64,000 nucleotides of DNA from positions 75,679-139,678 of the forward strand of contig UQAB01000001.1 of assembly GCA_900538765.1 (NCBI GenBank), read 5' to 3'. Positions 46,029-60,816 of this stretch are shown here, piece after piece; the stretch's first letter is position 1; the number at the start of each line of letters is the position of its first letter. The notes beneath the pieces are model-generated. The model was not told the DNA's origin. It saw nothing but the letters and a program-made list of their open reading frames with translations, and made no database searches. The position numbers and the translations under genes are program-made. Source of the stretch: an uncultured Azospirillum sp. Lineage in GTDB: Bacteria; Pseudomonadota; Alphaproteobacteria; RF32; CAG-239.

Positions 46029-46281
46029 TTATAAATTCTCCTTATGGATTCTCAACAAATGCCGCCTGCAATCGATATAAGGAATCGAAACAGCCGGCGT
46101 GTTCTTTTGTATAGCCCGAACATTTCGAGCAAGGAACGGCTGCAATATACACCAAACTCGTTAATTTGCAAGCATTTTTTCATTTTACGGCAAATTTAGC
46201 CAAAATCAGCCGCCATATTTATATTATATTAAGGTTTTGCCTTTATATTTAAACAAAATAAACTTAACACCTGGGGCGCAA

Positions 46282-46623
46282 ATGCTGAATTTTAAACCAA
46301 TATTGATATTCTGTCTGGTTCTGGCGGTCGGTTCCTGCGGCTGGTTTCACCACAGCGGCAAAACCATACACCACATCCCGGCACCGGCAGGATATGCCAA
46401 CGAAATACAAAAAATAAGCCTGCTTGACCCCTATACCCGCAATATTGTCCATTGTTACGATTCATCTTCCGGCGGCTCGGAAAACTGCGCCAGAAAATAC
46501 AAACGAAAAAACTTTGTCCGTTTCCGCGACATCCCGTATAAAACGGCAAACTACGATTTTCTGACCAGAGAAACTTATCCGACCCGCCGCTGGAGAGAAC
46601 ACGAACGCACGCCCCGGTGGTAA
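46282..46623 (+). CDS. small putative lipoprotein
   Basis: MLNFKPILIFCLVLAVGSCG is lipobox-like. The ORF-track start at 46237 is TTG. Weak SD. Confidence 0.35.
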   Translation: MLNFKPILIFCLVLAVGSCGWFHHSGKTIHHIPAPAGYANEIQKISLLDPYTRNIVHCYDSSSGGSENCARKYKRKNFVRFRDIPYKTANYDFLTRETYPTRRWREHERTPRW

Positions 46624-46629
46624 TCTGCA

Positions 46630-48153
46630 ATGCTGGCCAGAATCAATACTGTTACCTTTAACGGCTTAGAAGTTTTAAACGTCGACCTGCAGGTTCAGAT
46701 TTCATCTGGAATGCCTGCATTTTCCATCGTCGGCCTCCCGGATAAATCCATTGCCGAAAGCCGCGAGCGTGTCCGCGCCGCATTGAACTCTCTTGGGCTG
46801 TCTGTCCCTGCCAAACGCATCACCATCAACCTTGCACCGGCAGATTTACTGAAAGAAGGCGCTCACTTTGACCTTCCCGTCGCCTTAGGCCTGCTTGCCG
46901 GCATGGGAATTATCCCGCAGGAAGAAATCAGCCGTTATGTCGTCCTCGGCGAGCTCAGCCTTGACGGCGCCATTCTCCCTGTCAACGGTGCACTTCCCGT
47001 TGCAATCAAAGCCAACGCGCAAAACCTCGGCCTTATCTGCCCGGAGGCTCAAGGCGCTGAAGCAGCTTGGTCCGGGCTGAAAGACATCATCGCCGCATCT
47101 TCTCTGCTGGCATTGATAAACCACTTCAAAGGCGCGCAAATCATTCCTGCCCCAAAAACCTTGAAAAAAGCGCCAGCCGCCAAACATTTGGACATGAAAG
47201 ACGTCAAAGGGCAGGAAAGCGCCAAAAAAGCTCTTGAAATCGCTGCAGCCGGCGGACACAATATGTTAATGATTGGTCCGCCGGGAGCCGGAAAAAGCAT
47301 GCTCGCATCACGCCTGCCGGGAATTCTCCCGCCGTTGACGCCCGAAGAAGCCCTTGCCACCAGTATGATTCATTCCATAGCCGGTGCCCTGAAAGACGGA
47401 CAACTCTGTTTTGAGCGACCGTTCCGCGCCCCGCACCATAATGCCTCAACCCCGGCCTTGGTCGGCGGCGGCAGACGCGCTGAACCGGGAGAAATTTCCC
47501 TCGCCCATAACGGCGTATTATTCTTGGACGAGCTTCCCGAATTCAACCGTGCAACCCTGGAAGCGCTGCGCCAACCGCTCGAAAACGGCAGCATCACCAT
47601 TTCCCGGGTAAACGCTCATACAACCTATCCGGCAAAGTTCCAGCTCATCGCGGCAATGAACCCCTGCCGCTGTGGCAATCTAGGAAATCCGAGGTTTGAA
47701 TGCTCCCGAGCACCGAAATGTGCCGAAGAATATCAGGCAAAAATTTCCGGACCGCTCCTCGACCGTATAGATATACAAATTGAAGTTCCCGCCGTCAGTC
47801 CTTGGGAAATAGCCGACGTCAAAACCGGCGAAAGCTCAGCCGAAATCTTGCAAAGAGTTATCCATGCCCGCAACATCCAAACCGAAAGATTCCGACGTTT
47901 CGGCCATCCCGAACTGCACACCAATTCCGAACTCAGAGGCGACCTCCTGGAACAGGCCGTACAGCTGGATAATGACGCGGAACAGCTTCTCATCGCCTTT
48001 GCCGACAAAAACAACCTTTCAGCCCGCGCTTATCATCGTATTTTGCGGTTAGCAAGAACAATTGCAGACTTGCAAAATAACGAAAAAGTGCTTAAACTGC
48101 ACGTAGCTGAGGCTTTGTCCTATCGCAGGGCATTACCAAACCGGAGAAAATAA
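46630..48153 (+). CDS. YifB/ComM-family Mg-chelatase-like AAA+ ATPase
   Basis: Lon-like N-domain, Walker A GPPGAGKSMLA, and a ChlI-type core with the Cys cluster CRCGNLGNPRFECSRAPKC. Confidence 0.85.
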   Translation: MLARINTVTFNGLEVLNVDLQVQISSGMPAFSIVGLPDKSIAESRERVRAALNSLGLSVPAKRITINLAPADLLKEGAHFDLPVALGLLAGMGIIPQEEISRYVVLGELSLDGAILPVNGALPVAIKANAQNLGLICPEAQGAEAAWSGLKDIIAASSLLALINHFKGAQIIPAPKTLKKAPAAKHLDMKDVKGQESAKKALEIAAAGGHNMLMIGPPGAGKSMLASRLPGILPPLTPEEALATSMIHSIAGALKDGQLCFERPFRAPHHNASTPALVGGGRRAEPGEISLAHNGVLFLDELPEFNRATLEALRQPLENGSITISRVNAHTTYPAKFQLIAAMNPCRCGNLGNPRFECSRAPKCAEEYQAKISGPLLDRIDIQIEVPAVSPWEIADVKTGESSAEILQRVIHARNIQTERFRRFGHPELHTNSELRGDLLEQAVQLDNDAEQLLIAFADKNNLSARAYHRILRLARTIADLQNNEKVLKLHVAEALSYRRALPNRRK

Positions 48154-48165
48154 TGGAGAAAATAC

Positions 48166-51006
48166 ATGAAAATCACTAGGTGTTTCAAACTTTTAGCCTG
48201 TTCTGCCATGGCTCTGTCCATATGCAGCATAGCATTCTCCGAAACAATGGCCTCACAATACAGCAATAGTTTCCAACAAGATACGGAATCCGGAAGCCGC
48301 AGTGTTCGCGTCGAATATACGGGACTAAGCCGTTCCATGGGCTTCTTTGACGAAGCACAGCCCCAACCGGAAGAAATCCAGGGAAGCGCCAATGTCAACA
48401 CCAGACTCAAACAACGTCTTCCCCAACCCAAAGTAAACGTCAAAAGTACTTACAGCGGCGAAACTTACCGTGACGGCAGTATCTTTGGCGGCACCTGCTG
48501 CACCGCCTCTAACAAACAGGATAACAGCATTTTCCCCGGACATGGCTGCTCTAAAGACGAAATGCGCGGCTGTGTTACAGTCAAACCGGCGCCAAAAAAA
48601 GTTCCCTGCAAGCCTAAAAAACGCAAAATCATTGCCAAAGAAGCTGTTCCGATGCGCGAAAACTTCGTTAATAACTACGTCACCGTCGGCCGCCGCGACG
48701 TTTATCGCAGCATCCACAATCAATGCCAGAAATTTGCCCCCATTCAGCTGGAATGGGTTGATTTCAGACTGAATGAAGAAGACATCAACGGCACAATGTC
48801 ACAAAAACTCGGCAACTACCGTTTCCGCATTTTCGGCTGCCGCCGTTTTAGCAAAGAAGCTTTCCTTGATCAGAGTCGTCTGATGCAGCAAAACATGCGC
48901 TTCATGTCCATTTTCGAAAATGAACTCAAAGACTGCTTCAAAATCGTAAAAATTCCTAACGATGTCTGTACGGAAGTAACGCCCAGCCCGCTGCCCGAAT
49001 ATTTGGTAACCGCGGAAATCACCAATTATTTTATGAACATCTGCGATAAATACGACTGGGACAACAGCGTTAAGGAAGACAAACGCACCGGCTCGTCTGA
49101 AATTACGATTAAATGGACAATCACCGACATCAATAAAACCAAAGCTTACTGGAGCGGTGAAACAAACGGTTACGGCGAATTAATGCGCGGCGAGGAAAAC
49201 GGCGAAATAATCCTGGTGGAAAGAGCCTATGCCGACGCTGTCAATAATTTGCGCAACAATCCCGGCTTCCAAAAACAACTTTCCCGCCGCTTCAGTCCGG
49301 CTGAAAGAGAAAACCAGCGCATTGAACTGATTGAGCGCGAAAGAGAGCTTAACCCGGCAAAATGCCAATACACCAAACATGAAACAGAAATCAACGAAAC
49401 AACAAAATACGTTTACACGCCTGACAAACCGGCTGAAAAAGTTGATGTTCCGGAACCCGTATCACCGCTGGTTAAAAATAAAGAAGTACTGCCGGTTCCA
49501 ACAGTCGTTGCCAAACTCTCCGACGGTTCGGTTGTCGAAAAACAGTCTGACGGCGTTGTTATCCGCAAAAACAAAGACGGCAGCAGCATAAAAGTGGCTC
49601 CGGCTCCCAAACCGGCTCCGGAAATCAAAACGACCGTTACGACAACGGTAGAAAAGGAAATTCCGATACCGACACCCCCGGTTCCGCTGCCAGAACCTGC
49701 ACCATTACCGGCAGCACCGTTACCTACCCCGGCACCGGCCGTAACCACCACCACAACAACCGTTGTTACAACGGTAACAGAAGAGCCAGCACAGGTTTTT
49801 GACGCCGCAACATTACTTGAAAAAGAGCGCCCGTCAGAACCTCTGGACATCAGCCTTATTCCGACAAATCAGGAAGAACGTTACGGTCAAAATTCTGAAT
49901 TTGAAGATGCGGAAATCAAGGTTGACCTGAAAACCACAACGTTGGATAAGCCTTCCGGCGTCATCCCTCTGCCTGTACCGCCGCTGCCGGTTCCGGAAAA
50001 GCCCTGCAACAACATGACATTGTTTGGCCCGGATTGCGACTGCAATAATAAACTGTACCGCGGTTGTGAGGACAACAAGCTGTATAAAGGCTGTGAGGAC
50101 AACAAACTTTACGGCGGCTGTGAAGCTCAAACGCTGTTTGGCGATTGCACCAAAGATCCCCAGGGCTGCAAAGTCACAAACAACATCGATTTGGATATTG
50201 ATGAAAAAGGCGGTGTTGAAGCGACCGGTACAGTCAGCAAAGAAACCTGGATCAGCGTTCCGATTAATGATCAGGGAGCTATTGACGCTCAGAATAACCT
50301 CTGCATCATTGAGCGCCCGGCTTACGATACGCCGCTGACGCCGGAAGATGTCTATAAGATACGCGCGTCAATCATCTCAATTACCAACAACCAGGGAAAG
50401 AAAGGCGCCGGTCTTATCGTTTCCGACCAGTTTGTTTTGACCTCGGCCGACCTGATAACCAAAGAAAACAATTCTTATGAATTGCAGACAATCAACGGCG
50501 TCAAATTCAAAGGCCATGCGGTTCGCCTTAACCCGAACAAGAATGTTGCCCTGATATTCATGGAAAAGAAGACGACATACACACCGCTCTCTCTGAACCT
50601 TGAACTGCCGCCGATTAATAAGGACAAATTCCTGACGCTGGGTATCCTTGATTTCAGTACCGGCGAAGGTTACCTTGAAGATTCCGGAAAAGTCAGCGGT
50701 TACCGTTATTCTGAAAACCGCGGCACAGAAATCATCATTGATACTTTCGTTCAGGATGTCACGTTGGGCGGCGCTTTGATTGATAAGCAGGGAACAATTA
50801 CCGGCTTGGCTCATACCGGTGCCAAACCGAGTGAAAATACAGACTTGTTCCTACCGATTGCCACGGCAATGAAGAGTGTCGGTCTTGAAATCTGCGGCAA
50901 ACAGATAAAAGACATTCCGGTCAAGAATACTGAAATCAGCGACGCTATTCTCTTCAACAGCGGGTCAAAAGAACCTCTGCCGATGAACAAGAGCGAACGC
51001 AAATAA
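48166..51006 (+). CDS. large secreted protein with Pro/Thr-rich linker, Cys repeats and C-terminal degenerate trypsin-like domain
   Basis: Signal peptide MKITRCFKLLACSAMALSICSIAFS. PT-rich region ...PIPTPPVPLPEPAPLPAAPLPTPAPAVTTTTTT... Triple (R/K/G)GCEDNKLY repeat. C-terminal GAGLIVSDQFVLTSADLI ... GTEIIIDTFVQDVTLGGALIDKQGTITGL resembles the S1/HtrA fold with His and Ser positions substituted. Confidence 0.55.
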   Translation: MKITRCFKLLACSAMALSICSIAFSETMASQYSNSFQQDTESGSRSVRVEYTGLSRSMGFFDEAQPQPEEIQGSANVNTRLKQRLPQPKVNVKSTYSGETYRDGSIFGGTCCTASNKQDNSIFPGHGCSKDEMRGCVTVKPAPKKVPCKPKKRKIIAKEAVPMRENFVNNYVTVGRRDVYRSIHNQCQKFAPIQLEWVDFRLNEEDINGTMSQKLGNYRFRIFGCRRFSKEAFLDQSRLMQQNMRFMSIFENELKDCFKIVKIPNDVCTEVTPSPLPEYLVTAEITNYFMNICDKYDWDNSVKEDKRTGSSEITIKWTITDINKTKAYWSGETNGYGELMRGEENGEIILVERAYADAVNNLRNNPGFQKQLSRRFSPAERENQRIELIERERELNPAKCQYTKHETEINETTKYVYTPDKPAEKVDVPEPVSPLVKNKEVLPVPTVVAKLSDGSVVEKQSDGVVIRKNKDGSSIKVAPAPKPAPEIKTTVTTTVEKEIPIPTPPVPLPEPAPLPAAPLPTPAPAVTTTTTTVVTTVTEEPAQVFDAATLLEKERPSEPLDISLIPTNQEERYGQNSEFEDAEIKVDLKTTTLDKPSGVIPLPVPPLPVPEKPCNNMTLFGPDCDCNNKLYRGCEDNKLYKGCEDNKLYGGCEAQTLFGDCTKDPQGCKVTNNIDLDIDEKGGVEATGTVSKETWISVPINDQGAIDAQNNLCIIERPAYDTPLTPEDVYKIRASIISITNNQGKKGAGLIVSDQFVLTSADLITKENNSYELQTINGVKFKGHAVRLNPNKNVALIFMEKKTTYTPLSLNLELPPINKDKFLTLGILDFSTGEGYLEDSGKVSGYRYSENRGTEIIIDTFVQDVTLGGALIDKQGTITGLAHTGAKPSENTDLFLPIATAMKSVGLEICGKQIKDIPVKNTEISDAILFNSGSKEPLPMNKSERK

Positions 51007-51008
51007 CC

Positions 51009-51036
51009 CAAAAAAGCGCCCGTTTGGGCGCTTTTT
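51009..51036. terminator. bidirectional terminator
   Basis: AAAAAAGCGCCCgtttGGGCGCTTTTTT. Confidence 0.55.
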
Positions 51037-51050
51037 TGATAAACAAAATA

Positions 51051-51080
51051 AAAGCTCCAAAATAAAACTTGGAGCTTTTA
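51051..51080 (-). terminator. terminator of the 51085..51696 gene
   Basis: AAAAGCTCCAAaataaaacTTGGAGCTTTT. Confidence 0.5.
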
Positions 51081-51084
51081 TAAT

Positions 51085-51696
51085 TTAAGATAATTCAGAC
51101 AAATCCAGCACCGGATGAACAACGTAGTTGCCGTACTTATTGCGGTAGTCCACGCCGCCCCAATCAGCGCCAATAAGCGTACAGAAGACCCACGCGTGGT
51201 AGCCGTCATACTCGGACGACGACCAATACCATTTCCCCTGCACCACTATTGTATCACCGCCAAGGCTAATCAACAAATTATCAAGCGCTTTTTTCTGTTC
51301 CTCACAGCTACTCATCACTTTTTTCCAGAATCCAATTTTTCCGGCGCTGCAAGCATGACCTTCTATTTTAATTTCACGACAATACTTCACAACTTCTCTC
51401 CACGGCACCGTCCTTGAAGAATCATGTAAGGTGATAAGATGATTCTCAAAAATAACGCCCAATGGCTTTTTGCCTTCAAGCGGAACCCATGACCGAACCA
51501 TACCCTCATACATAACTTCAAAAGGAAATCTTTCCTCGTTCTCTTTTGAAGAAACACCAACGACAGAAACGTCACTTGCTACAGCATTAATAGCCGGTAC
51601 CTCCTTTTCAGCACAATATTGCACCAAATCGTCAACTAAAAACCCTGCCGCCTCCAATGTCTCTTTAATACTTTGTAAAAATTTTTCTTTTTCCAT
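51085..51696 (-). CDS. family protein: N-terminal domain plus DUF1566/Lcl-C-terminal-like domain
   Basis: ...GKWYWSSSEYDGYHAWVFCTLIGADWGGVDYRNKYGNYVVHPV matches the hallmark YWSST...AW.v.f..G......yvRcV ending of DUF1566/FISUMP-type domains. No signal peptide. Confidence 0.5.
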   Translation of the reverse strand: MEKEKFLQSIKETLEAAGFLVDDLVQYCAEKEVPAINAVASDVSVVGVSSKENEERFPFEVMYEGMVRSWVPLEGKKPLGVIFENHLITLHDSSRTVPWREVVKYCREIKIEGHACSAGKIGFWKKVMSSCEEQKKALDNLLISLGGDTIVVQGKWYWSSSEYDGYHAWVFCTLIGADWGGVDYRNKYGNYVVHPVLDLSELS

Positions 51697-51775: not shown

Positions 51776-51819
51776 AAACCATTCATCTGCTTATACCGCT
51801 GCTAATCCGCCTTAATCCT

Positions 51820-52255
51820 AGCCGTAGTAAAAAGTTCAGAGTTTGCGGCAGATAATAAGAATCTCGGAAAAAGACGAAGGGAGTGTACATAGAAGTACAT
51901 GACCGAGTATTTTTTCAATGTTCTGTATTAGATGCCCAAAATACGCAGCAACAAACCCAAACCCCGACCTTAGCCGCTGTAAAAAGGTCGGAGTTTGCGG
52001 CAGATAATAAGAATCTCGGAAAAAGACGAAGGAAGTGTACACAGAAGTACATGACCGAGTATTTTTCCGAGATTCTGTATTAGGTACCCAAAATACGCAG
52101 CAACAAACCCAAGCCCCGACCTTAGCCGCTGTAAAAAGGTCGGAGTTTGCGGCAGATAATAAGAATCTCGGAAAAAGACGAAGGGAGTGTACACAGAAGT
52201 ACATGACCGAGTATTTTTCCGAGATTCTGTATTAGGTGCCCAAAATACGAGCTTT
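51820..52255. repeat. three tandem ~152-bp family-A-variant repeat units between infB stop and the 51085 gene promoter
   Basis: Each unit is ...CCGACCTTAGCCGCTGTAAAAAGGTCGGAGTTTGCGGCAGATAATAAGAATCTCGGAAAAAgacgaaGGGAGTGTACACAGAAGTACATGACCGAGTATTTTTCCGAGATTCTGTATTAGGT(A/G)CCCAAAATACG... ORFs 51836..52204, 51883..52083, 51970..52287, 52035..52235 and 52187..52393 are repeat artefacts. Confidence 0.7.
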
Positions 52256-54757
52256 TTACAATGTTGCGGCGATTTCCTCCACCTCATAACACTCTATAAA
52301 GTCACCGACTTGAATATCGTTATAGTTTTCAAAACTCATACCGCATTCATAGCCGGATTTGACCTCTTTAACATCTTCCTTAAAGCGTTTTAGCTGAGCC
52401 AAAGCGCCATCATGAATAACAACATTGTCACGCAGCAGACGAACCTTGGCACCACGCTTGACAAAGCCTTCCGTCACCATGCAGCCGCCGACTTTACCGA
52501 CACCGGTAATATTGAAGACATTGCGGATTTCGGCATAACCGATAATCTTTTCTCTCAATTCAGGCGACAACATACCTTCCAAAGCCTTCTTAATGTCATC
52601 GGCCACATCATAAATAATCGAGTAATAACGAATATCCACGCCGTCCTGACGCGCCATGTCACGGGCATGCGGAATAGCACGGACGTTAAAGCCGATGATA
52701 AAGGCATTGGAAGCCTTAGCCAGAGTAACATCGGAATCCGAAATAGGACCAACGGCAGAATGCAAAATCTGAACGCTGACTTCCTCGTTGGACAACTTCT
52801 TAATTGTACCTTCAATAGCCTCAATAGAACCTTGAACATCAGCCTTGATAATAACCGGCAAATGCTTAACTTCGCCTGACTTAATCTTATCAAGCATCTG
52901 TTCCATTGCAGACTTGGCACTCTTAACCAGTTTAGCGTCACGTTCTTTGCGAATACGATAACCGGTAACTTCCTTAGCCTGGTTTTCGTCCTTAACAATG
53001 ACAAAATCGTCACCGGCTGCCGGCGTTCCTTGCAAACCGAGAATTTCAACTGGGGTCGCCGGACCGGCTTCCGTCATCTTCTTGCCATGTTCGTTAAACA
53101 TAGCGCGGACATGTCCCCACTCCTTACCGGCAATACAAATATCACCAACGCGCAGCGTACCGTTCTGAACCAGAACCGTTGCAACAGAACCGCGGCCTTT
53201 TTCCATCTTGGCTTCAACAACCGTACCCGAAGCCATGCGATTCGGGTTGGCTTTCAAATCCAGAATTTCCGCCTGCAACAGAATAGCTTCAACCAGCTTA
53301 TCAATGTTAATACGCTTCTTAGCCGAAACTTCTGCGCTCAAATATTCACCGCCCATATCTTCAACGGCAATGCCATGTTGCAATAAAGCGGTCTTCACCT
53401 TCATCGGATCAGCGCCCGGAAGGTCAATCTTGTTAATCGCAACCACAATCGGCACTTCTGCAGCCTGAGCATGGCGGATTGCCTCAACCGTCTGCGGCAT
53501 AATGCCGTCATTGGCAGCAACCACCAGAACCACAATATCGGTAACCTTTGCACCGCGAGCACGCATTTCTGAAAAGGCCTCGTGTCCCGGCGTATCAATA
53601 AAGGCAATCTTTTTGCCTCCGGCAACTTCAATCTGATAAGCACCGATATGTTGCGTAATACCACCAGCCTCGCGAGAAGCAACGTTTGTTTCGCGCAAAG
53701 CATCCAATAACGAAGTCTTACCATGGTCAACGTGTCCCATAACCGTAACCACCGGCGCTCTCGGCAGCAAATCGGCGTCCGTATCTTCCGGACCGGTCAA
53801 CCCCTGCTCAACATCGCTGTCGGCAACTCGTTTAAACTTATGTCCGAATTCCTCAACCACAATCTGCGCCGTATCGGCATCAATCGGTTGGTTAATCGTA
53901 GCCATAACCCCTAAAGCCATCAGCTTTTTAATAACTTCGGCACCTTTTTCTGCCATACGGTTAGCCAATTCCTGAACCGTAATAATTTCAGGAATAACGA
54001 CCTCTTTAACAATTTTTTCTGTCGGCTGCTGAAAAGCCTGCTGCTTCGGCTGTTTTTTCTTAAACCGACGCCGGCCGCCGCCAAAACCATAATCATCGTC
54101 ATCTTCATCAACACTGCTCAATGTATGCAGGTTGACTTTTCCGCCGCGCCGCGGTGTTTCAAAACTGCGCTTCATAACTTTTTTGCGCTCTTGTTCAAAA
54201 ACATCATCTTTGCTCAAAGATCTTTCGGCAACTTTTTTAAACTTATGATTATGGGAATCTTCTTCCTCGTCTTCGTCCTCTTCATCGAAATCGCGGGACT
54301 TCTTTTCCTTAATCTTCTGAATACGATCATCCTCAGCCGGTGAAACCGCTGCCGTTACCACAGGACGAACAGCTGCTTTTTTCTCCTCCGCCGCCTTTTT
54401 AGCTTCTTCGGCTTCCCGTTGAGCCTTTTCCTGCTCTTCCTGTTCACGTCTCAGCTGGCGCTGGCGTTCCTTCTCTTCTTCCTCCTGCCGGCGTTTGGCA
54501 TCATGCTCTTTAGCCTCGGCAATAAGCCGCAGCTTTGCAGCTGTCGCTTCGTCAATTTTAACTTTAGGCTCTTCCGTTTCGCTGCGATTGGCGATAACCC
54601 TCTTCTTTCGCACTTCAACCTGAACAATCTTCTTGCCGTCATTATTGTGCGCCCGGGAACCGTCGCTTACATTTTTGAGTGTAAGGGTAGATTTACCTGA
54701 TAATGTTAATTTGCTTTTTGCATTATCTTCTGTCATTAATTTTTTTCTCCGTATCAT
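52256..54757 (-). CDS. infB: translation initiation factor IF-2
   Basis: GTPase domain [19 protein letters not shown]...DTPGHEAF...NKID and the IF-2 C-terminal domains. An alternative start is the ATG at 54736. Confidence 0.95.
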
Positions 54758-57816: not shown

Positions 57817-59592
57817 TCATATTTTTTTTTTATATTTCAAAACAAAATCATTAACAAGGTCATAAATCTTCTGCTTGTAACATTTTTGATTGTATAAAGT
57901 TTCTATATCAATATCTTTATTCCCAACATATATTTTTATTCGTGAACCCAGCTTGACATCAATATCTTCGTCTAAAGCTAGAAAGTCTAAATTAAAAATT
58001 TCAGCATATTGTTTTTTAATCTTTTCTTTAAGCCTCAAATAATCTTCATTTACTAACAAATATTTTAGCATAAATTCATTTCCAAAAAAATCCTTGTATT
58101 TTGAATAATCATTACTAGCAATACTAGCGCACTTATCATTTGTTATATCACAAGGATACAAACTTAAATCAATCTTTTCGCTTTTATTTATAACAAACCA
58201 ACATGTCAATCCTCCATCAGAAGGGCGTTCTTTAAAATATTCTTCACTCAAGGTTCTGTAATATGCATAATAATCTCTTAGGCATTCACCGTTTTCTACA
58301 TATTCAATTTTCTTTGATAGAGGAGCTTGAGAATTAGTACTTCCATCTTTTACCAAAGAAATTGTTGCTGGTTGAACATCCTTATAAATAATAAACGTTT
58401 TATTACGATCTAAATAATTTTTCTTATTTTCAATGACGATATTCTTGTCTTTCTTCAACGTTCTATATTCTCTTAATTTGTCTCCAGCAAAATCCTTCTC
58501 ATCAAAATAGTAAAGCTTATCTCGTACTTTAATTGAGGCATGGGGAGGTAAACCAACAAACTCTTCTTTATCTGAATTTTGTCGATAAAAAAAGAACTCG
58601 GCATTGTAATTAAACAATTCATATTTTTTGTTTTGAAATGATAAACTTGCTATCGTATACGGAGAATTATTGGTAATTATATACTCAACTTCAAAATCAT
58701 TGTAATTAGAGATAACACGAGAAAACTTAACCTCAACCTGAGACTTCAACTCCTCAATTTTATCACTGAAAGGTTTCGCTATTAGCTTTCCATCAGTCAT
58801 AAAATTAAATGTCTGCTCTATAAGATTATTTATTTTCTTTTGTTTTTCTGAACTACAAATATTCCCATCAATTTCCGTTGCAATTTCATCAGTTTTATAA
58901 GCCATTGCTGCTTGATAATCTTTACTTAATTTTCTTAAATCATCTAAAAAATCCATTCCCAAATTTTTGTCATTAGTAAGAATATCTTTATCAGATGGGG
59001 AAATATTAAAAATTTCTTCTGTATACTCTTCTTCATTTTCTAAAATCTCAAGATAAGAAGAAATAATTTTTTTTACTTTCTTTCTGTTGTTTAACTCTTT
59101 TAACTTTTGTTCCTCCCTTTTCTGTTTCATATCCTTATTATACGTTTTACATGAACGATAATTACTAATTTCATTCATTCTCGACAAACTTAATTCTGTT
59201 TTTAATACATTTATATCCTTTTGCAGAGGGTTATCGTCATAAACATTTGCCAAAAACAAGCTATAATGTTCTATTACGGTTTCCATGTCGCCTAAAACAA
59301 TATCTTTAATATTATCACATACGTTTGACACTTCCATATTAGCAATCTCTGTTTTTATCTCTACTAAGCTAGATATTCTATTTGAAAGTACAATCCGTGA
59401 TGTTACAGAAGCAATTTTCTCATACTCAGAAAATAATTTTATTTTCTTGTTTATAAATTCTTTTTCCCCTGCTGGCTCGTAAAAATATTTATAATAAGAA
59501 TAACAAATACTTCCACAAATTATTATTGTTAACAAGGCTATTAAAGATAGTAAAATTATTTTCTTTAATTTCAACATTTTCTTTTCTTCCAT
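57817..59592 (-). CDS. AT-rich-island hypothetical lysine-rich single-pass membrane protein (~592 aa)
   Basis: Start at MEEKKMLKLKKIILLSLIALLTIIICG with SD GGGGTGA 3-4 nt upstream. N-terminal TM then a large K/N/E/Y-rich domain. Very low GC compared with neighbours. Confidence 0.55.
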   Translation of the reverse strand: MEEKKMLKLKKIILLSLIALLTIIICGSICYSYYKYFYEPAGEKEFINKKIKLFSEYEKIASVTSRIVLSNRISSLVEIKTEIANMEVSNVCDNIKDIVLGDMETVIEHYSLFLANVYDDNPLQKDINVLKTELSLSRMNEISNYRSCKTYNKDMKQKREEQKLKELNNRKKVKKIISSYLEILENEEEYTEEIFNISPSDKDILTNDKNLGMDFLDDLRKLSKDYQAAMAYKTDEIATEIDGNICSSEKQKKINNLIEQTFNFMTDGKLIAKPFSDKIEELKSQVEVKFSRVISNYNDFEVEYIITNNSPYTIASLSFQNKKYELFNYNAEFFFYRQNSDKEEFVGLPPHASIKVRDKLYYFDEKDFAGDKLREYRTLKKDKNIVIENKKNYLDRNKTFIIYKDVQPATISLVKDGSTNSQAPLSKKIEYVENGECLRDYYAYYRTLSEEYFKERPSDGGLTCWFVINKSEKIDLSLYPCDITNDKCASIASNDYSKYKDFFGNEFMLKYLLVNEDYLRLKEKIKKQYAEIFNLDFLALDEDIDVKLGSRIKIYVGNKDIDIETLYNQKCYKQKIYDLVNDFVLKYKKKI

Positions 59593-59706
59593 AATCACCC
59601 CGCTTATTCGAAAAACCATTAATCGAAAAATACTTCCAATAAAAAGACACAAACAACAAAAAAATGAAAAACTAAATCTATATTAATCATCCATTATACA
59701 CAACAT

Positions 59707-60816
59707 TTAACCGTCTTCAAGATGAAGCAATATCGACACGCTCACCAATACCGTAATCAAAATAGGCGTCCAAACCGCCATAAATACCGGAATATAGCCG
59801 TTCAAACCGAAAGTATAAATAACCTGCGATGAAAAATAAACCAGAAAACCGGCAATAATACCGCCGACAATAAGAAACATCACGCCACCGCGGCGATTGT
59901 TCGGCCGCAGAGCAAAAACCGCCGCTACCAAAACCATGGCACAAAGCATAAATGGCGAAGCAATCAGCGACAAATAACGAATTCGATGTTTAACCACCGA
60001 AAAGCCGGATTTTTTATAAAATTCTATTGTGCTGGGCAAATCCCAAAAAGAAATGGCGTCAGGATCAATAAAATTCTCCCGGATACGATCGACCGTAATC
60101 GTTGTGTTGTACTTAACGCTGTTGACAATAGTCCGCGGCTTACCGGCCTCAAATACATTAACATCTTTCAACTCAATCTGTTCATTTTTCAAAACCGCCA
60201 TAAAAGCACCAACCTGCCGCAAAATCTGGGAATTATGGTCAAGTTCCAAAATATTGACATCATACAAATACAAAGTCTGCTCATCTTCCTGACGGACGGA
60301 TTTGGCCTGCATTACCAAAACATTGCCTTCTTCCGCCGCTTCCCTGATCCATAATCCTTTATCGGAAAAAAGCACGGCCTTCGGATTTTTGGTCTTAAGC
60401 TGATAATCCATCGTTTCAAAAATTTCCAACATCCTTGAGGCAATCGGATTAAAAATACTCACATTAATCACGCCAATCATAAAAACGGCAAACAGAACCG
60501 GAACCAGAAAGCCCCAAACAGACACCCCTGCTGCCCGGATAATCACAAATTCGTTTGTTTTGCTGACTTTTTGAAAAGTCACCATCGCGGCAATCATCAT
60601 GACAAACGGGAAAATCATATCCAGTGTCCGCGGCAATTTCATCATTACCATCTTCAGAACAAAACCCCAGCCGATATCCGGCCTGTCCGCCACACGGCGC
60701 AGCAAATCAATCACCTCAAACATAAATATAATGCCCAGCACCATAATCAGAACTGAGAAAAAATTCCACACAATCTGCTTTGTCAGATATCTGCCGAGAA
60801 TAGAATTAGGTTTCAT
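59707..60816 (-). CDS. LptF/LptG-family LPS export permease (YjgP/YjgQ)
   Basis: Six-TM topology with a large periplasmic loop and a conserved N-terminal ILGRYL...F region. 369 aa. Confidence 0.75.
   Translation of the reverse strand: MKPNSILGRYLTKQIVWNFFSVLIMVLGIIFMFEVIDLLRRVADRPDIGWGFVLKMVMMKLPRTLDMIFPFVMMIAAMVTFQKVSKTNEFVIIRAAGVSVWGFLVPVLFAVFMIGVINVSIFNPIASRMLEIFETMDYQLKTKNPKAVLFSDKGLWIREAAEEGNVLVMQAKSVRQEDEQTLYLYDVNILELDHNSQILRQVGAFMAVLKNEQIELKDVNVFEAGKPRTIVNSVKYNTTITVDRIRENFIDPDAISFWDLPSTIEFYKKSGFSVVKHRIRYLSLIASPFMLCAMVLVAAVFALRPNNRRGGVMFLIVGGIIAGFLVYFSSQVIYTFGLNGYIPVFMAVWTPILITVLVSVSILLHLEDG

Follow-up and report, generated by a model that had tools for sequence, protein, structure and literature searches.

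A putative pseudo-protease with an HtrA-like domain, encoded downstream of comM in uncultured gut Alphaproteobacteria

Gene and protein architecture

The window analyzed here is a 64,000-nucleotide (nt) stretch from an uncultured Azospirillum sp. (assembly GCA_900538765.1, contig UQAB01000001.1, forward-strand positions 75,679 to 139,678), and all coordinates count from its first letter. It is ordinary chromosome that carries pnp, truB, rpsF-rpsR-rplI, comM, infB, nusA and rimP. Directly downstream of comM lies a gene for an exported protein of 946 amino acids (aa) in which an N-terminal globular domain is joined by a long linker to a C-terminal domain that resembles HtrA-type serine proteases and appears to have a dead active site (Table 1). 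The original prediction, which was made from the letters of the window, had placed an open reading frame (ORF) of this length at 48166 to 51006. This ORF is borne out with an ATG start, and its product differs from the database protein P0001 at four residues.

Table 1. Positions of the pseudo-protease gene, its protein regions and the other features of its inferred transcription unit
Feature	Coordinates	Strand	Remarks
Small putative lipoprotein gene	46237..46623	+	128 aa, lipobox LAVGS-C; opens the inferred transcription unit
comM/yifB	46630..48153	+	Mg-chelatase-like AAA+ protein, 507 aa; Pfam ChlI, Mg_chelatase, Mg_chelatase_C
Whole pseudo-protease gene	48166..51006	+	exported two-domain pseudo-protease, 946 aa
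Sec signal peptide, aa 1-29	48166..48252	+	signal-peptidase I cleavage predicted after T-M-A29
N-terminal variable region, aa 30-165	48253..48660	+	two D-G/N-S-I-F-(P)-G-x-G-C motifs, further Cys
Conserved N-terminal globular domain, aa 166-403	48661..49374	+	~240 aa, six invariant Cys
Pro/Thr-rich low-complexity linker, aa 404-612	49375..50001	+	35 Pro and 26 Thr in 209 aa
Cys-rich 9-aa repeats, aa 613-668	50002..50169	+	DCNNKLYR / GCEDNKLYK / GCEDNKLYG / GCEAQTLFG
C-terminal HtrA-like (S1C, chymotrypsin-fold) domain, aa 685-910	50218..50895	+	dead active site
Asp762, catalytic His position	50449..50451	+	GAC; TSA-D-L vs TNA-H-V
Asn793, catalytic Asp position	50542..50544	+	AAT; K-N-VAL vs R-D-VAL
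Val865-Thr866-Leu867, in place of Gly-Asn-Ser of the oxyanion-hole/nucleophile loop	50758..50766	+	GNSGG to VTLGG
C-terminal tail, aa 911-946	50896..51003	+	dead-clade-specific; conserved E-R-K at its end
Hairpin, 14-bp, GC-rich, flanked by A and T runs	51008..51039	.	likely bidirectional intrinsic terminator ending the unit

BLAST comparisons with relatives show conservation in two blocks of the protein, aa ~97-405 and ~678-946; the linker between them defies alignment. The signal peptide that had been called at the N-terminus holds up: this is the sole hydrophobic segment of the protein, and the residue aligned with position 29 is small across the family (A, or G in some members). Because a small residue here fits a signal-peptidase I site, cleavage probably occurs after A29. 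A lipoprotein identity was considered and rejected. The only lipobox-like string, LLAC at aa 9-12, lies inside the hydrophobic core and comes too early, and the signal-peptide Cys is missing in close relatives such as P0004. Credible lipoboxes are present in some other subclades of the catalytically dead family defined below.

A PT-rich linker exists as proposed, but it does not directly follow the signal peptide. A 135-aa region with Cys motifs and a globular domain of ~240 aa come in between. The first of these holds its D-G/N-S-I-F-(P)-G-x-G-C motif copies at aa 103-112 and aa 119-128, and a Pfam search with aa 30-165 returned nothing significant. The Pro/Thr-rich segment cannot be aligned across the family, and the whole stretch between the two folded domains measures 281 aa. 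The GCEDNKLY element had been described as a triple repeat. Two copies are exact (aa 633 and aa 642), but the flanking units, DCNNKLY and GCEAQTLF, are degenerate; in the DNA the repeat has a 27-nt period and 2.7 copies (50050-50123). The six invariant Cys of the N-terminal domain, together with C713 and C910, suggest disulfides, which would imply an oxidizing compartment.

The C-terminal domain and its substituted active site

The two C-terminal strings in which a resemblance to S1 proteases was first seen are present as quoted, GAGLIVSDQFVLTSADLI at aa 747-764 and DTFVQDVTLGGALIDKQGTITGL at aa 859-881, and the resemblance goes beyond chance. Pfam Trypsin_2 (PF13365) matches aa 747-881 (nt 50404-50808) over its full 144-position model with 32.4 bits (E = 1.9e-7; gathering cutoff 27.6 bits). 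A profile built from 14 C-domain sequences of the family matches the HtrA1 chains of Mycobacterium tuberculosis and the human HTRA1 chains in the PDB; a phmmer search of the full protein against the PDB returned low-complexity and chance matches only. No PDZ domain, nor any other Pfam domain, appears anywhere in the protein even at E values up to 10. The description as HtrA-like therefore stands for an S1C-type protease domain, but not for the PDZ domain that might have been expected with it. NCBIfam gives only far sub-threshold matches to MarP and DegP/HtrA models (degP_htrA_DO scores 12.2 bits vs a cutoff of 416), and its MamO model NF040961 does not match even at E up to 10.

Alignment with the HtrA structures pairs TSA-D-L with TNA-H-V, K-N-TAL with T-D-LAV, and T-L-GGAL with N-S-GGPL, and it places an intact His, Asp or Ser nowhere else. 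The substitutions of the catalytic His and Ser that had been noticed are both real (D762 and L867), but this account was incomplete, since the catalytic Asp is replaced as well (Asn793). Profile alignments with HtrA structures and with the active sister family agree in putting Leu867 at the catalytic Ser and Val865 at the Gly of the oxyanion hole. The GNSGG loop thus reads V-T-L-G-G and retains its two trailing Gly alone.

These replacements are a property of the family. Among 120 close relatives, the His column is D in 108, E in 2 and N in 1 of the 111 residues counted; the Asp column is N in 118, D in 1 and T in 1; and the Ser column is I in 95, L in 16, T in 5 and V in 3, and never S. Neither these 120 sequences nor 35 representatives of the wider dead clade (clustered at 50% identity) have a catalytic His or Ser at its own column. 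The oxyanion-hole Gly column of the dead clade holds Val, Thr or Ile, and the domain lacks any invariant His across the family.

A fold search weakly corroborates the assignment. With a poor AlphaFold2 model of the C-domain as query, Foldseek retrieved only HtrA-family protease domains from the PDB, aligned over ~80-110 residues: HtrA2, HtrA1, DegS, DegQ, DegP, MucD, Rv0983 and the S1C-like domain of RsgI9 (7sjy). Because there is a significant match to the S1 fold and an intact His/Asp/Ser set does not occur elsewhere, the earlier reading of a pseudo-protease on an exported protein is supported. As judged from sequence, the fold is retained, the catalytic residues are lost family-wide and the domain is under purifying selection, which is how a pseudo-protease is operationally defined. 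We infer that the 946-aa protein is incapable of serine-protease chemistry.

Active relatives and descent

A profile of the full-length family was searched against 1.84 billion representative sequences and matched 479 of them. About 35 are long proteins (529-1176 aa), and many others are proteins of ~430-460 aa that match both the N- and the C-domain. The short relatives score 100-110 bits against Trypsin_2, vs 32 for the 946-aa protein, and they carry LTN-H-V, R-D-VAL and GN-S-GGPL, that is, an intact triad. They are annotated generically as 'S1C family serine protease' or 'trypsin-like peptidase domain-containing protein' and come from Ferrovibrio, Shumkonia, Haematospirillum, Limimonas, Dongia, Telmatospirillum, Rhodovibrionaceae and Magnetovibrionaceae. 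We refer to these two-domain S1C proteases of ~450 aa (for example P0195) as the active clade, and to the separate group of two-domain proteins with dead triads as the dead clade.

Both domains have their homologs in the active clade. When compared by hhalign with a profile of 22 active relatives, the C-domain aligns over 181 columns (99.3%, E = 1e-20), with the D/H, N/D, L/S and V/G pairs visible in the alignment, and the N-domain aligns with that of the active lipoprotein proteases over 189 columns (99.7%, E = 5e-27). On this sequence evidence the two domains together are homologous to the ~450-aa S1C proteases of free-living Rhodospirillales. Neighbor-joining trees of 99 two-domain representatives separate dead triads from H-D-S triads in 200 of 200 bootstraps, whether they are built from the concatenated domains, the N-domain or the C-domain. 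Since the same split is recovered from the concatenation and from each domain alone, the two domains have traveled together. Neither this N-terminal domain nor descent from an active lipoprotein protease was part of the original prediction.

The direction of change is most simply from active to dead, because other S1C proteases are universally H-D-S, and the 946-aa protein would then be a catalytically disabled descendant of a lipoprotein S1C protease. The basal members of the dead clade have triads of S-D-L (P0156 and P0160), K-D-L, G-D-L or D-D-L. Because Asp is the only catalytic residue that they retain, their sequences suggest that Ser and His were lost before Asp. A separate observation concerns three proteins of ~460 aa that group with the active proteases, in which the triad has degenerated independently: E-H-A in P0227, D-N-A in P0242 and G-G-A in P0249. 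The D-N-A of P0242 echoes the Asp/Asn pair of the dead crown clade and may be a convergence.

The dead clade has also been remodeled around its two domains. The linker between them has a median of 239 aa (range 79-684) in the dead clade and 38 aa in the active clade, and the region before the N-domain has medians of 142 and 37 aa, respectively. The C-terminal tail has a median of 36 aa and usually ends in x-R-K in the dead clade, vs 5 aa in the active clade; it ends in ERK in 117 of the 120 close relatives. DGSIFPGG-C motifs are found in 14 of 35 dead-clade representatives and in none of 64 active ones, and a lipobox-like signal is found in 7 of 35 and 43 of 62. Relative to the active family, then, the dead clade has acquired Cys motifs near the N-terminus, a C-terminal tail and a long disordered linker, and most of its members have lost the lipobox.

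Four stages are available as natural sequences: active, ancestor-like enzymes in free-living Rhodospirillales; basal forms with Asp but without Ser and His; the dead crown clade; and three independent degenerates within the active clade. The order of active-site loss is therefore directly testable, and bacterial pseudoenzymes have rarely been traced so fully.

The N-terminal domain

The domain at aa 166-403 has no Pfam match at E values up to 10, and the same is true of the N-domain of an active relative. A family profile of the domain likewise matched nothing among PDB sequences. It is conserved and belongs to no described sequence family; what is lacking is a family model.

An AlphaFold2 model of the domain (predicted local distance difference test score, pLDDT, 71.8; predicted template modeling score, pTM, 0.73) was compared with known structures by Foldseek, which matched CsgG (E = 2e-5), HpaA, Cj1090c, CT253, LptE, PelC, FlgT and GNA1162. 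The match probabilities are ~1.0, with template modeling (TM) scores of just 0.3-0.55. The domain is thus predicted to share its alpha/beta fold with CsgG, LptE, PelC and other lipoprotein scaffolds of the outer membrane, and we take this modeled likeness to reflect a common core fold, not family membership.

Distribution and selective constraint

Relatives were scanned across one genome per GTDB species. At least 247 species-representative genomes carry them, the best being 98% identical. Hosts among the matches listed are human, mouse, deer, yak and chicken, and every match listed is a metagenome-assembled genome (MAG) of an uncultured gut or rumen alphaproteobacterium. Public databases label dead-clade members 'hypothetical' or, misleadingly, 'probable serine proteinase', as in the abundant relative CDB53291.1 ('probable serine proteinase [Azospirillum sp. 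CAG:239]'). The gene also occurs on four contigs (L046, L055, L070 and L087) whose MAGs bear the titles Lactobacillaceae, Eubacteriales, Bacteroidaceae and [Ruminococcus] gnavus; binning contamination or mislabeling is a more likely source of these titles than transfer.

Measured against the 98%-identical relative (dS 0.32), the N-domain has a ratio of nonsynonymous to synonymous substitution (dN/dS) of 0.016, the C-domain one of 0.019 and the linker one of 0.044. With relatives of 65-74% identity, the folded domains give ~0.07-0.09 where dS is unsaturated. By these sequence comparisons, purifying selection on the dead C-domain is as strong as on the N-domain. In sets of 50%-identity representatives, conservation reaches at least 80% in 53 of the 262 C-domain columns of the dead clade, vs 40 columns of the active clade, and the dead clade has C-domain motifs of its own (Y-PL-L-L-LP, GYRY and G-EI).

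Loss of the catalytic residues, along with low-complexity linkers that expand and contract, is what a decaying, functionless remnant or a mis-called ORF would show, yet this explanation is refuted by reading frames that are intact in 247 species genomes, a dN/dS of ~0.02 in both folded domains, more conserved columns than in the active sister family, and an operon position kept in all 74 loci that show both genes. The low dN/dS and a column conservation above that of the active clade indicate that the gene is not decaying. It encodes a large, strongly conserved and unannotated core protein of widespread uncultured Alphaproteobacteria of the human and animal gut.

Genomic context

The pseudo-protease gene is probably co-transcribed with comM and with a small putative lipoprotein gene that has no Pfam family. 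The gaps are 6 nt (lipoprotein gene to comM) and 12 nt (comM to the pseudo-protease gene). A promoter-like site lies ahead of the lipoprotein gene at 46197-46225, and no terminator-like site is found between the three genes. In 71 of 77 related loci, comM is preceded on its own strand by a homolog of the lipoprotein gene at a distance of 4-26 nt, and comM is directly upstream of the pseudo-protease gene on the same strand in 74 of the 74 that show both. The three genes look like a fixed unit in this lineage.

Downstream, the gene converges on a 203-aa ORF (51085-51696, minus strand) across a 78-nt gap that holds the putative terminator hairpin and a second strong hairpin at 51048-51081. This ORF has no Pfam family, has homologs in 6 of 77 related loci and occupies the place that hslVU has in many relatives. 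Where at least 1.5 kb of downstream sequence is available, hslV lies ~110-250 nt downstream of the gene in 14 of 62 loci, and one crown member of the dead clade shows the order lpp-comM-gene-hslVU. Active members have related surroundings. The Rhodovibrionaceae enzyme P0173 lies between a divergent his operon and hslVU, and P0273 has a divergent HIT gene upstream. The basal dead form P0160 is preceded by HIT-hisE-hisF, and these upstream his/HIT genes are the only context that it shares with active members. We also considered hslV as a neighbor of basal forms, but this was not borne out, as the truncated genes that follow in L088 and L089 are different ones. Because his/HIT genes upstream and hslVU downstream are common to active and dead members, the arrangement is what would be expected if the dead gene were orthologous by position to the gene for the active enzyme and if comM and the lipoprotein gene had entered upstream at a later time.

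Two further features of the window lie outside this unit. A 152-nt unit occurs in three tandem copies (100, 91 and 79% identity; 51819-52274) in the spacer that separates the 203-aa gene from the 3' end of infB. It gives rise to the near-duplicate spurious ORFs 51836..52204 and 51970..52287, and an Rfam scan of 44-53 kb, which covers the repeat, found no match. A low-G+C block at 58001-60000 (0.30 vs ~0.45 elsewhere) overlaps a 611-aa ORF (57817..59652, minus strand) and may be foreign or fast-evolving DNA.

Proposed function and alternatives

We favor, with a probability of roughly 0.6, a non-catalytic envelope protein that binds, holds or serves as an adaptor and does not cut. By analogy with CsgG, LptE and PelC, the N-domain could dock the protein to an outer-membrane or envelope partner or drive its oligomerization. 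Carried by the flexible linker of ~280 aa, the dead protease domain would be able to contact a polypeptide or some other ligand (an unfolded polypeptide being the simplest case), which might be held in the remodeled but conserved cleft of the former active site.

Several points weigh against this reading. The polarity from active to dead was inferred without a rooted tree, and the tree alignments were fitted to hidden Markov models from the dead clade. The N-terminal fold comes from a single model of moderate confidence with the low TM-scores given above. The AlphaFold2 model of the C-domain, made from a 14-sequence alignment, has a pLDDT of 41, and its first beta-barrel (55-78) is the sole usable part. 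A binding or scaffold role is argued by elimination and analogy, and all carriers are uncultured.

The leading alternative, plausible but clearly less probable, is a secreted or cell-surface, adhesin-like protein in which the dead domain and the Cys repeats are presented on a PT-rich stalk and bind a host or matrix ligand of the gut, for example a glycan. The clade is confined to gut and rumen MAGs, its linker and repeat expansions are clade-specific, its many Cys point to an oxidizing compartment, and most members have lost the lipid anchor. There is also a precedent in RsgI9, whose S1C-like domain is among the structural matches (7sjy) and is described as binding cellulose (PMC12203970). However, the protein has no recognizable signal for translocation across or anchoring in the outer membrane, and no autotransporter, type IX secretion system or other Pfam domain was found in it. 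In a diderm, a Sec signal by default delivers its protein to the periplasm, and the surroundings (comM, hslVU and ribosomal protein genes) are those of a housekeeping region, not of a secretion or adhesion locus.

A bolder version of the envelope role is improbable in our estimation. It holds that the former active site was rebuilt into a new ligand-binding or even catalytic pocket, and that the protein, with its gene co-transcribed with those for ComM and the lipoprotein in almost every member, is an envelope machine peculiar to this gut lineage (Azospirillum sp. CAG:239-type). Asp762 and Asn793 are nearly invariant, and the clade has invariant motifs of its own (YTPLSLNL, GEGYL and GYRYS). 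Candidate roles would be DNA uptake linked to ComM or outer-membrane biogenesis, and if this version were true, the protein would be more than a generic peptide-binding scaffold.

HtrA-type domains oligomerize through the protease domain, and together with the high conservation of the dead domain this speaks for a role as the allosteric partner, or as an activator, of another HtrA/DegP that is itself active. MamO, which acts in this way in MamE-dependent proteolysis, provides a precedent within the Alphaproteobacteria (PMC4794232). Such a role is nevertheless quite doubtful here: there is no canonical HtrA gene in the window or in the conserved neighborhood, and by its position the gene seems orthologous to that of the active enzyme; it does not look like a duplicate retained next to one.

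It is very unlikely that the protein is still an enzyme with a non-canonical site, in which Thr866 or Ser760 would be the nucleophile and would act with Asp762 or Lys792. All four of these residues and N793 are nearly invariant, which could reflect new chemistry, and MamO also has a Thr at the nucleophile position (PMC4794232). That Thr is dispensable, however, and MamO is inactive (PMC4794232). In the present family, the C-domain has no conserved His and thus no general base of the usual kind, Val, Thr or Ile replaces the oxyanion-hole Gly, and the nucleophile column itself varies among I, L, V and T. K/R792 is conserved in the active family too and is consequently not a new feature.

Comparison with known systems

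The canonical HtrA/DegP/DegQ/DegS proteases (MEROPS S1C) have the same fold and the same order of motifs as the C-domain (G-x-G-f-i…LTN-H-V, D-hAL, GNSGG-P-L-hD…G…G). They lack the N-terminal scaffold domain and the long linker that the 946-aa protein has. Without a triad, a GNSGG loop or a PDZ domain, this protein falls outside the HtrA/DegP family proper. Eukaryotic S1 pseudoproteases such as haptoglobin, HGF, azurocidin and protein Z also keep the chymotrypsin fold as a binding module after loss of the triad, but they are of an unrelated lineage (S1A), have other partners and share no common architecture with it.

The N-domain invites comparison with CsgG, LptE, PelC, HpaA, Cj1090c and FlgT. 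These are lipoproteins, as most active relatives of the 946-aa protein are predicted to be, whereas the lipid anchor typical of the class is probably absent from the 946-aa protein itself. The domain has no sequence match to CsgG, LptE or similar families in Pfam, or to PDB sequences. When its sequence is read against the model, the long strands are polar, which gives no hint of a transmembrane hairpin of the CsgG type.

Pseudoproteases have arisen repeatedly in magnetotactic bacteria, and one of them is MamO, whose triad is dispensable, which activates MamE-dependent proteolysis and which binds metal (PMC4794232). Like the present protein, MamO has a trypsin-2/HtrA-type domain that has lost catalysis and is retained for a non-catalytic role, with a degenerate triad, a non-glycine residue at oxyanion-hole position 193 and an active HtrA-like ancestor in the Alphaproteobacteria (PMC4794232). 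The differences are also clear. In MamO, His and Asp are intact and Ser has become Thr (PMC4794232), whereas all three residues are replaced in the 946-aa protein. MamO is fused to a TauE transporter and has a di-His metal site (PMC4794232); the 946-aa protein has no TauE domain and no conserved His, its N-terminal domain is unrelated to MamO, and NCBIfam does not place it in the MamO family.

The S1C-like domain in the ectodomain of RsgI9 from Clostridium thermocellum, one of the top structural matches of the C-domain model (PDB 7sjy), is described as cellulose-binding and not proteolytic (PMC12203970). RsgI9 itself, an anti-sigma factor from a Firmicute, also has an NTF2 domain and a transmembrane helix, and it has no sequence link to the 946-aa protein beyond the S1C superfamily.

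A limited search of the literature on bacterial HtrA-type pseudoproteases found nothing on the dead-clade family or on gut Alphaproteobacteria. As a kind, then, the bacterial S1C pseudoprotease is already known, and this variant, its N-domain and its evolutionary series appear to be undescribed. The closest counterparts are the active two-domain S1C proteases, none of which has been experimentally characterized as far as source names show. They have the same domains in the same order as the 946-aa protein, and neither group has a PDZ domain. The columns of Cys225 and Cys293 are the two invariant N-domain Cys of the active family, and these residues may form a disulfide. The active proteases differ in that they keep His-Asp-Ser and GNSGG and have neither the C-terminal tail nor the DGSIFPGG-C motifs. 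On the sequence relationships, the true family of the 946-aa protein is this uncharacterized two-domain S1C lineage of the Alphaproteobacteria, within which it belongs to a dead, expanded and gut-restricted branch.

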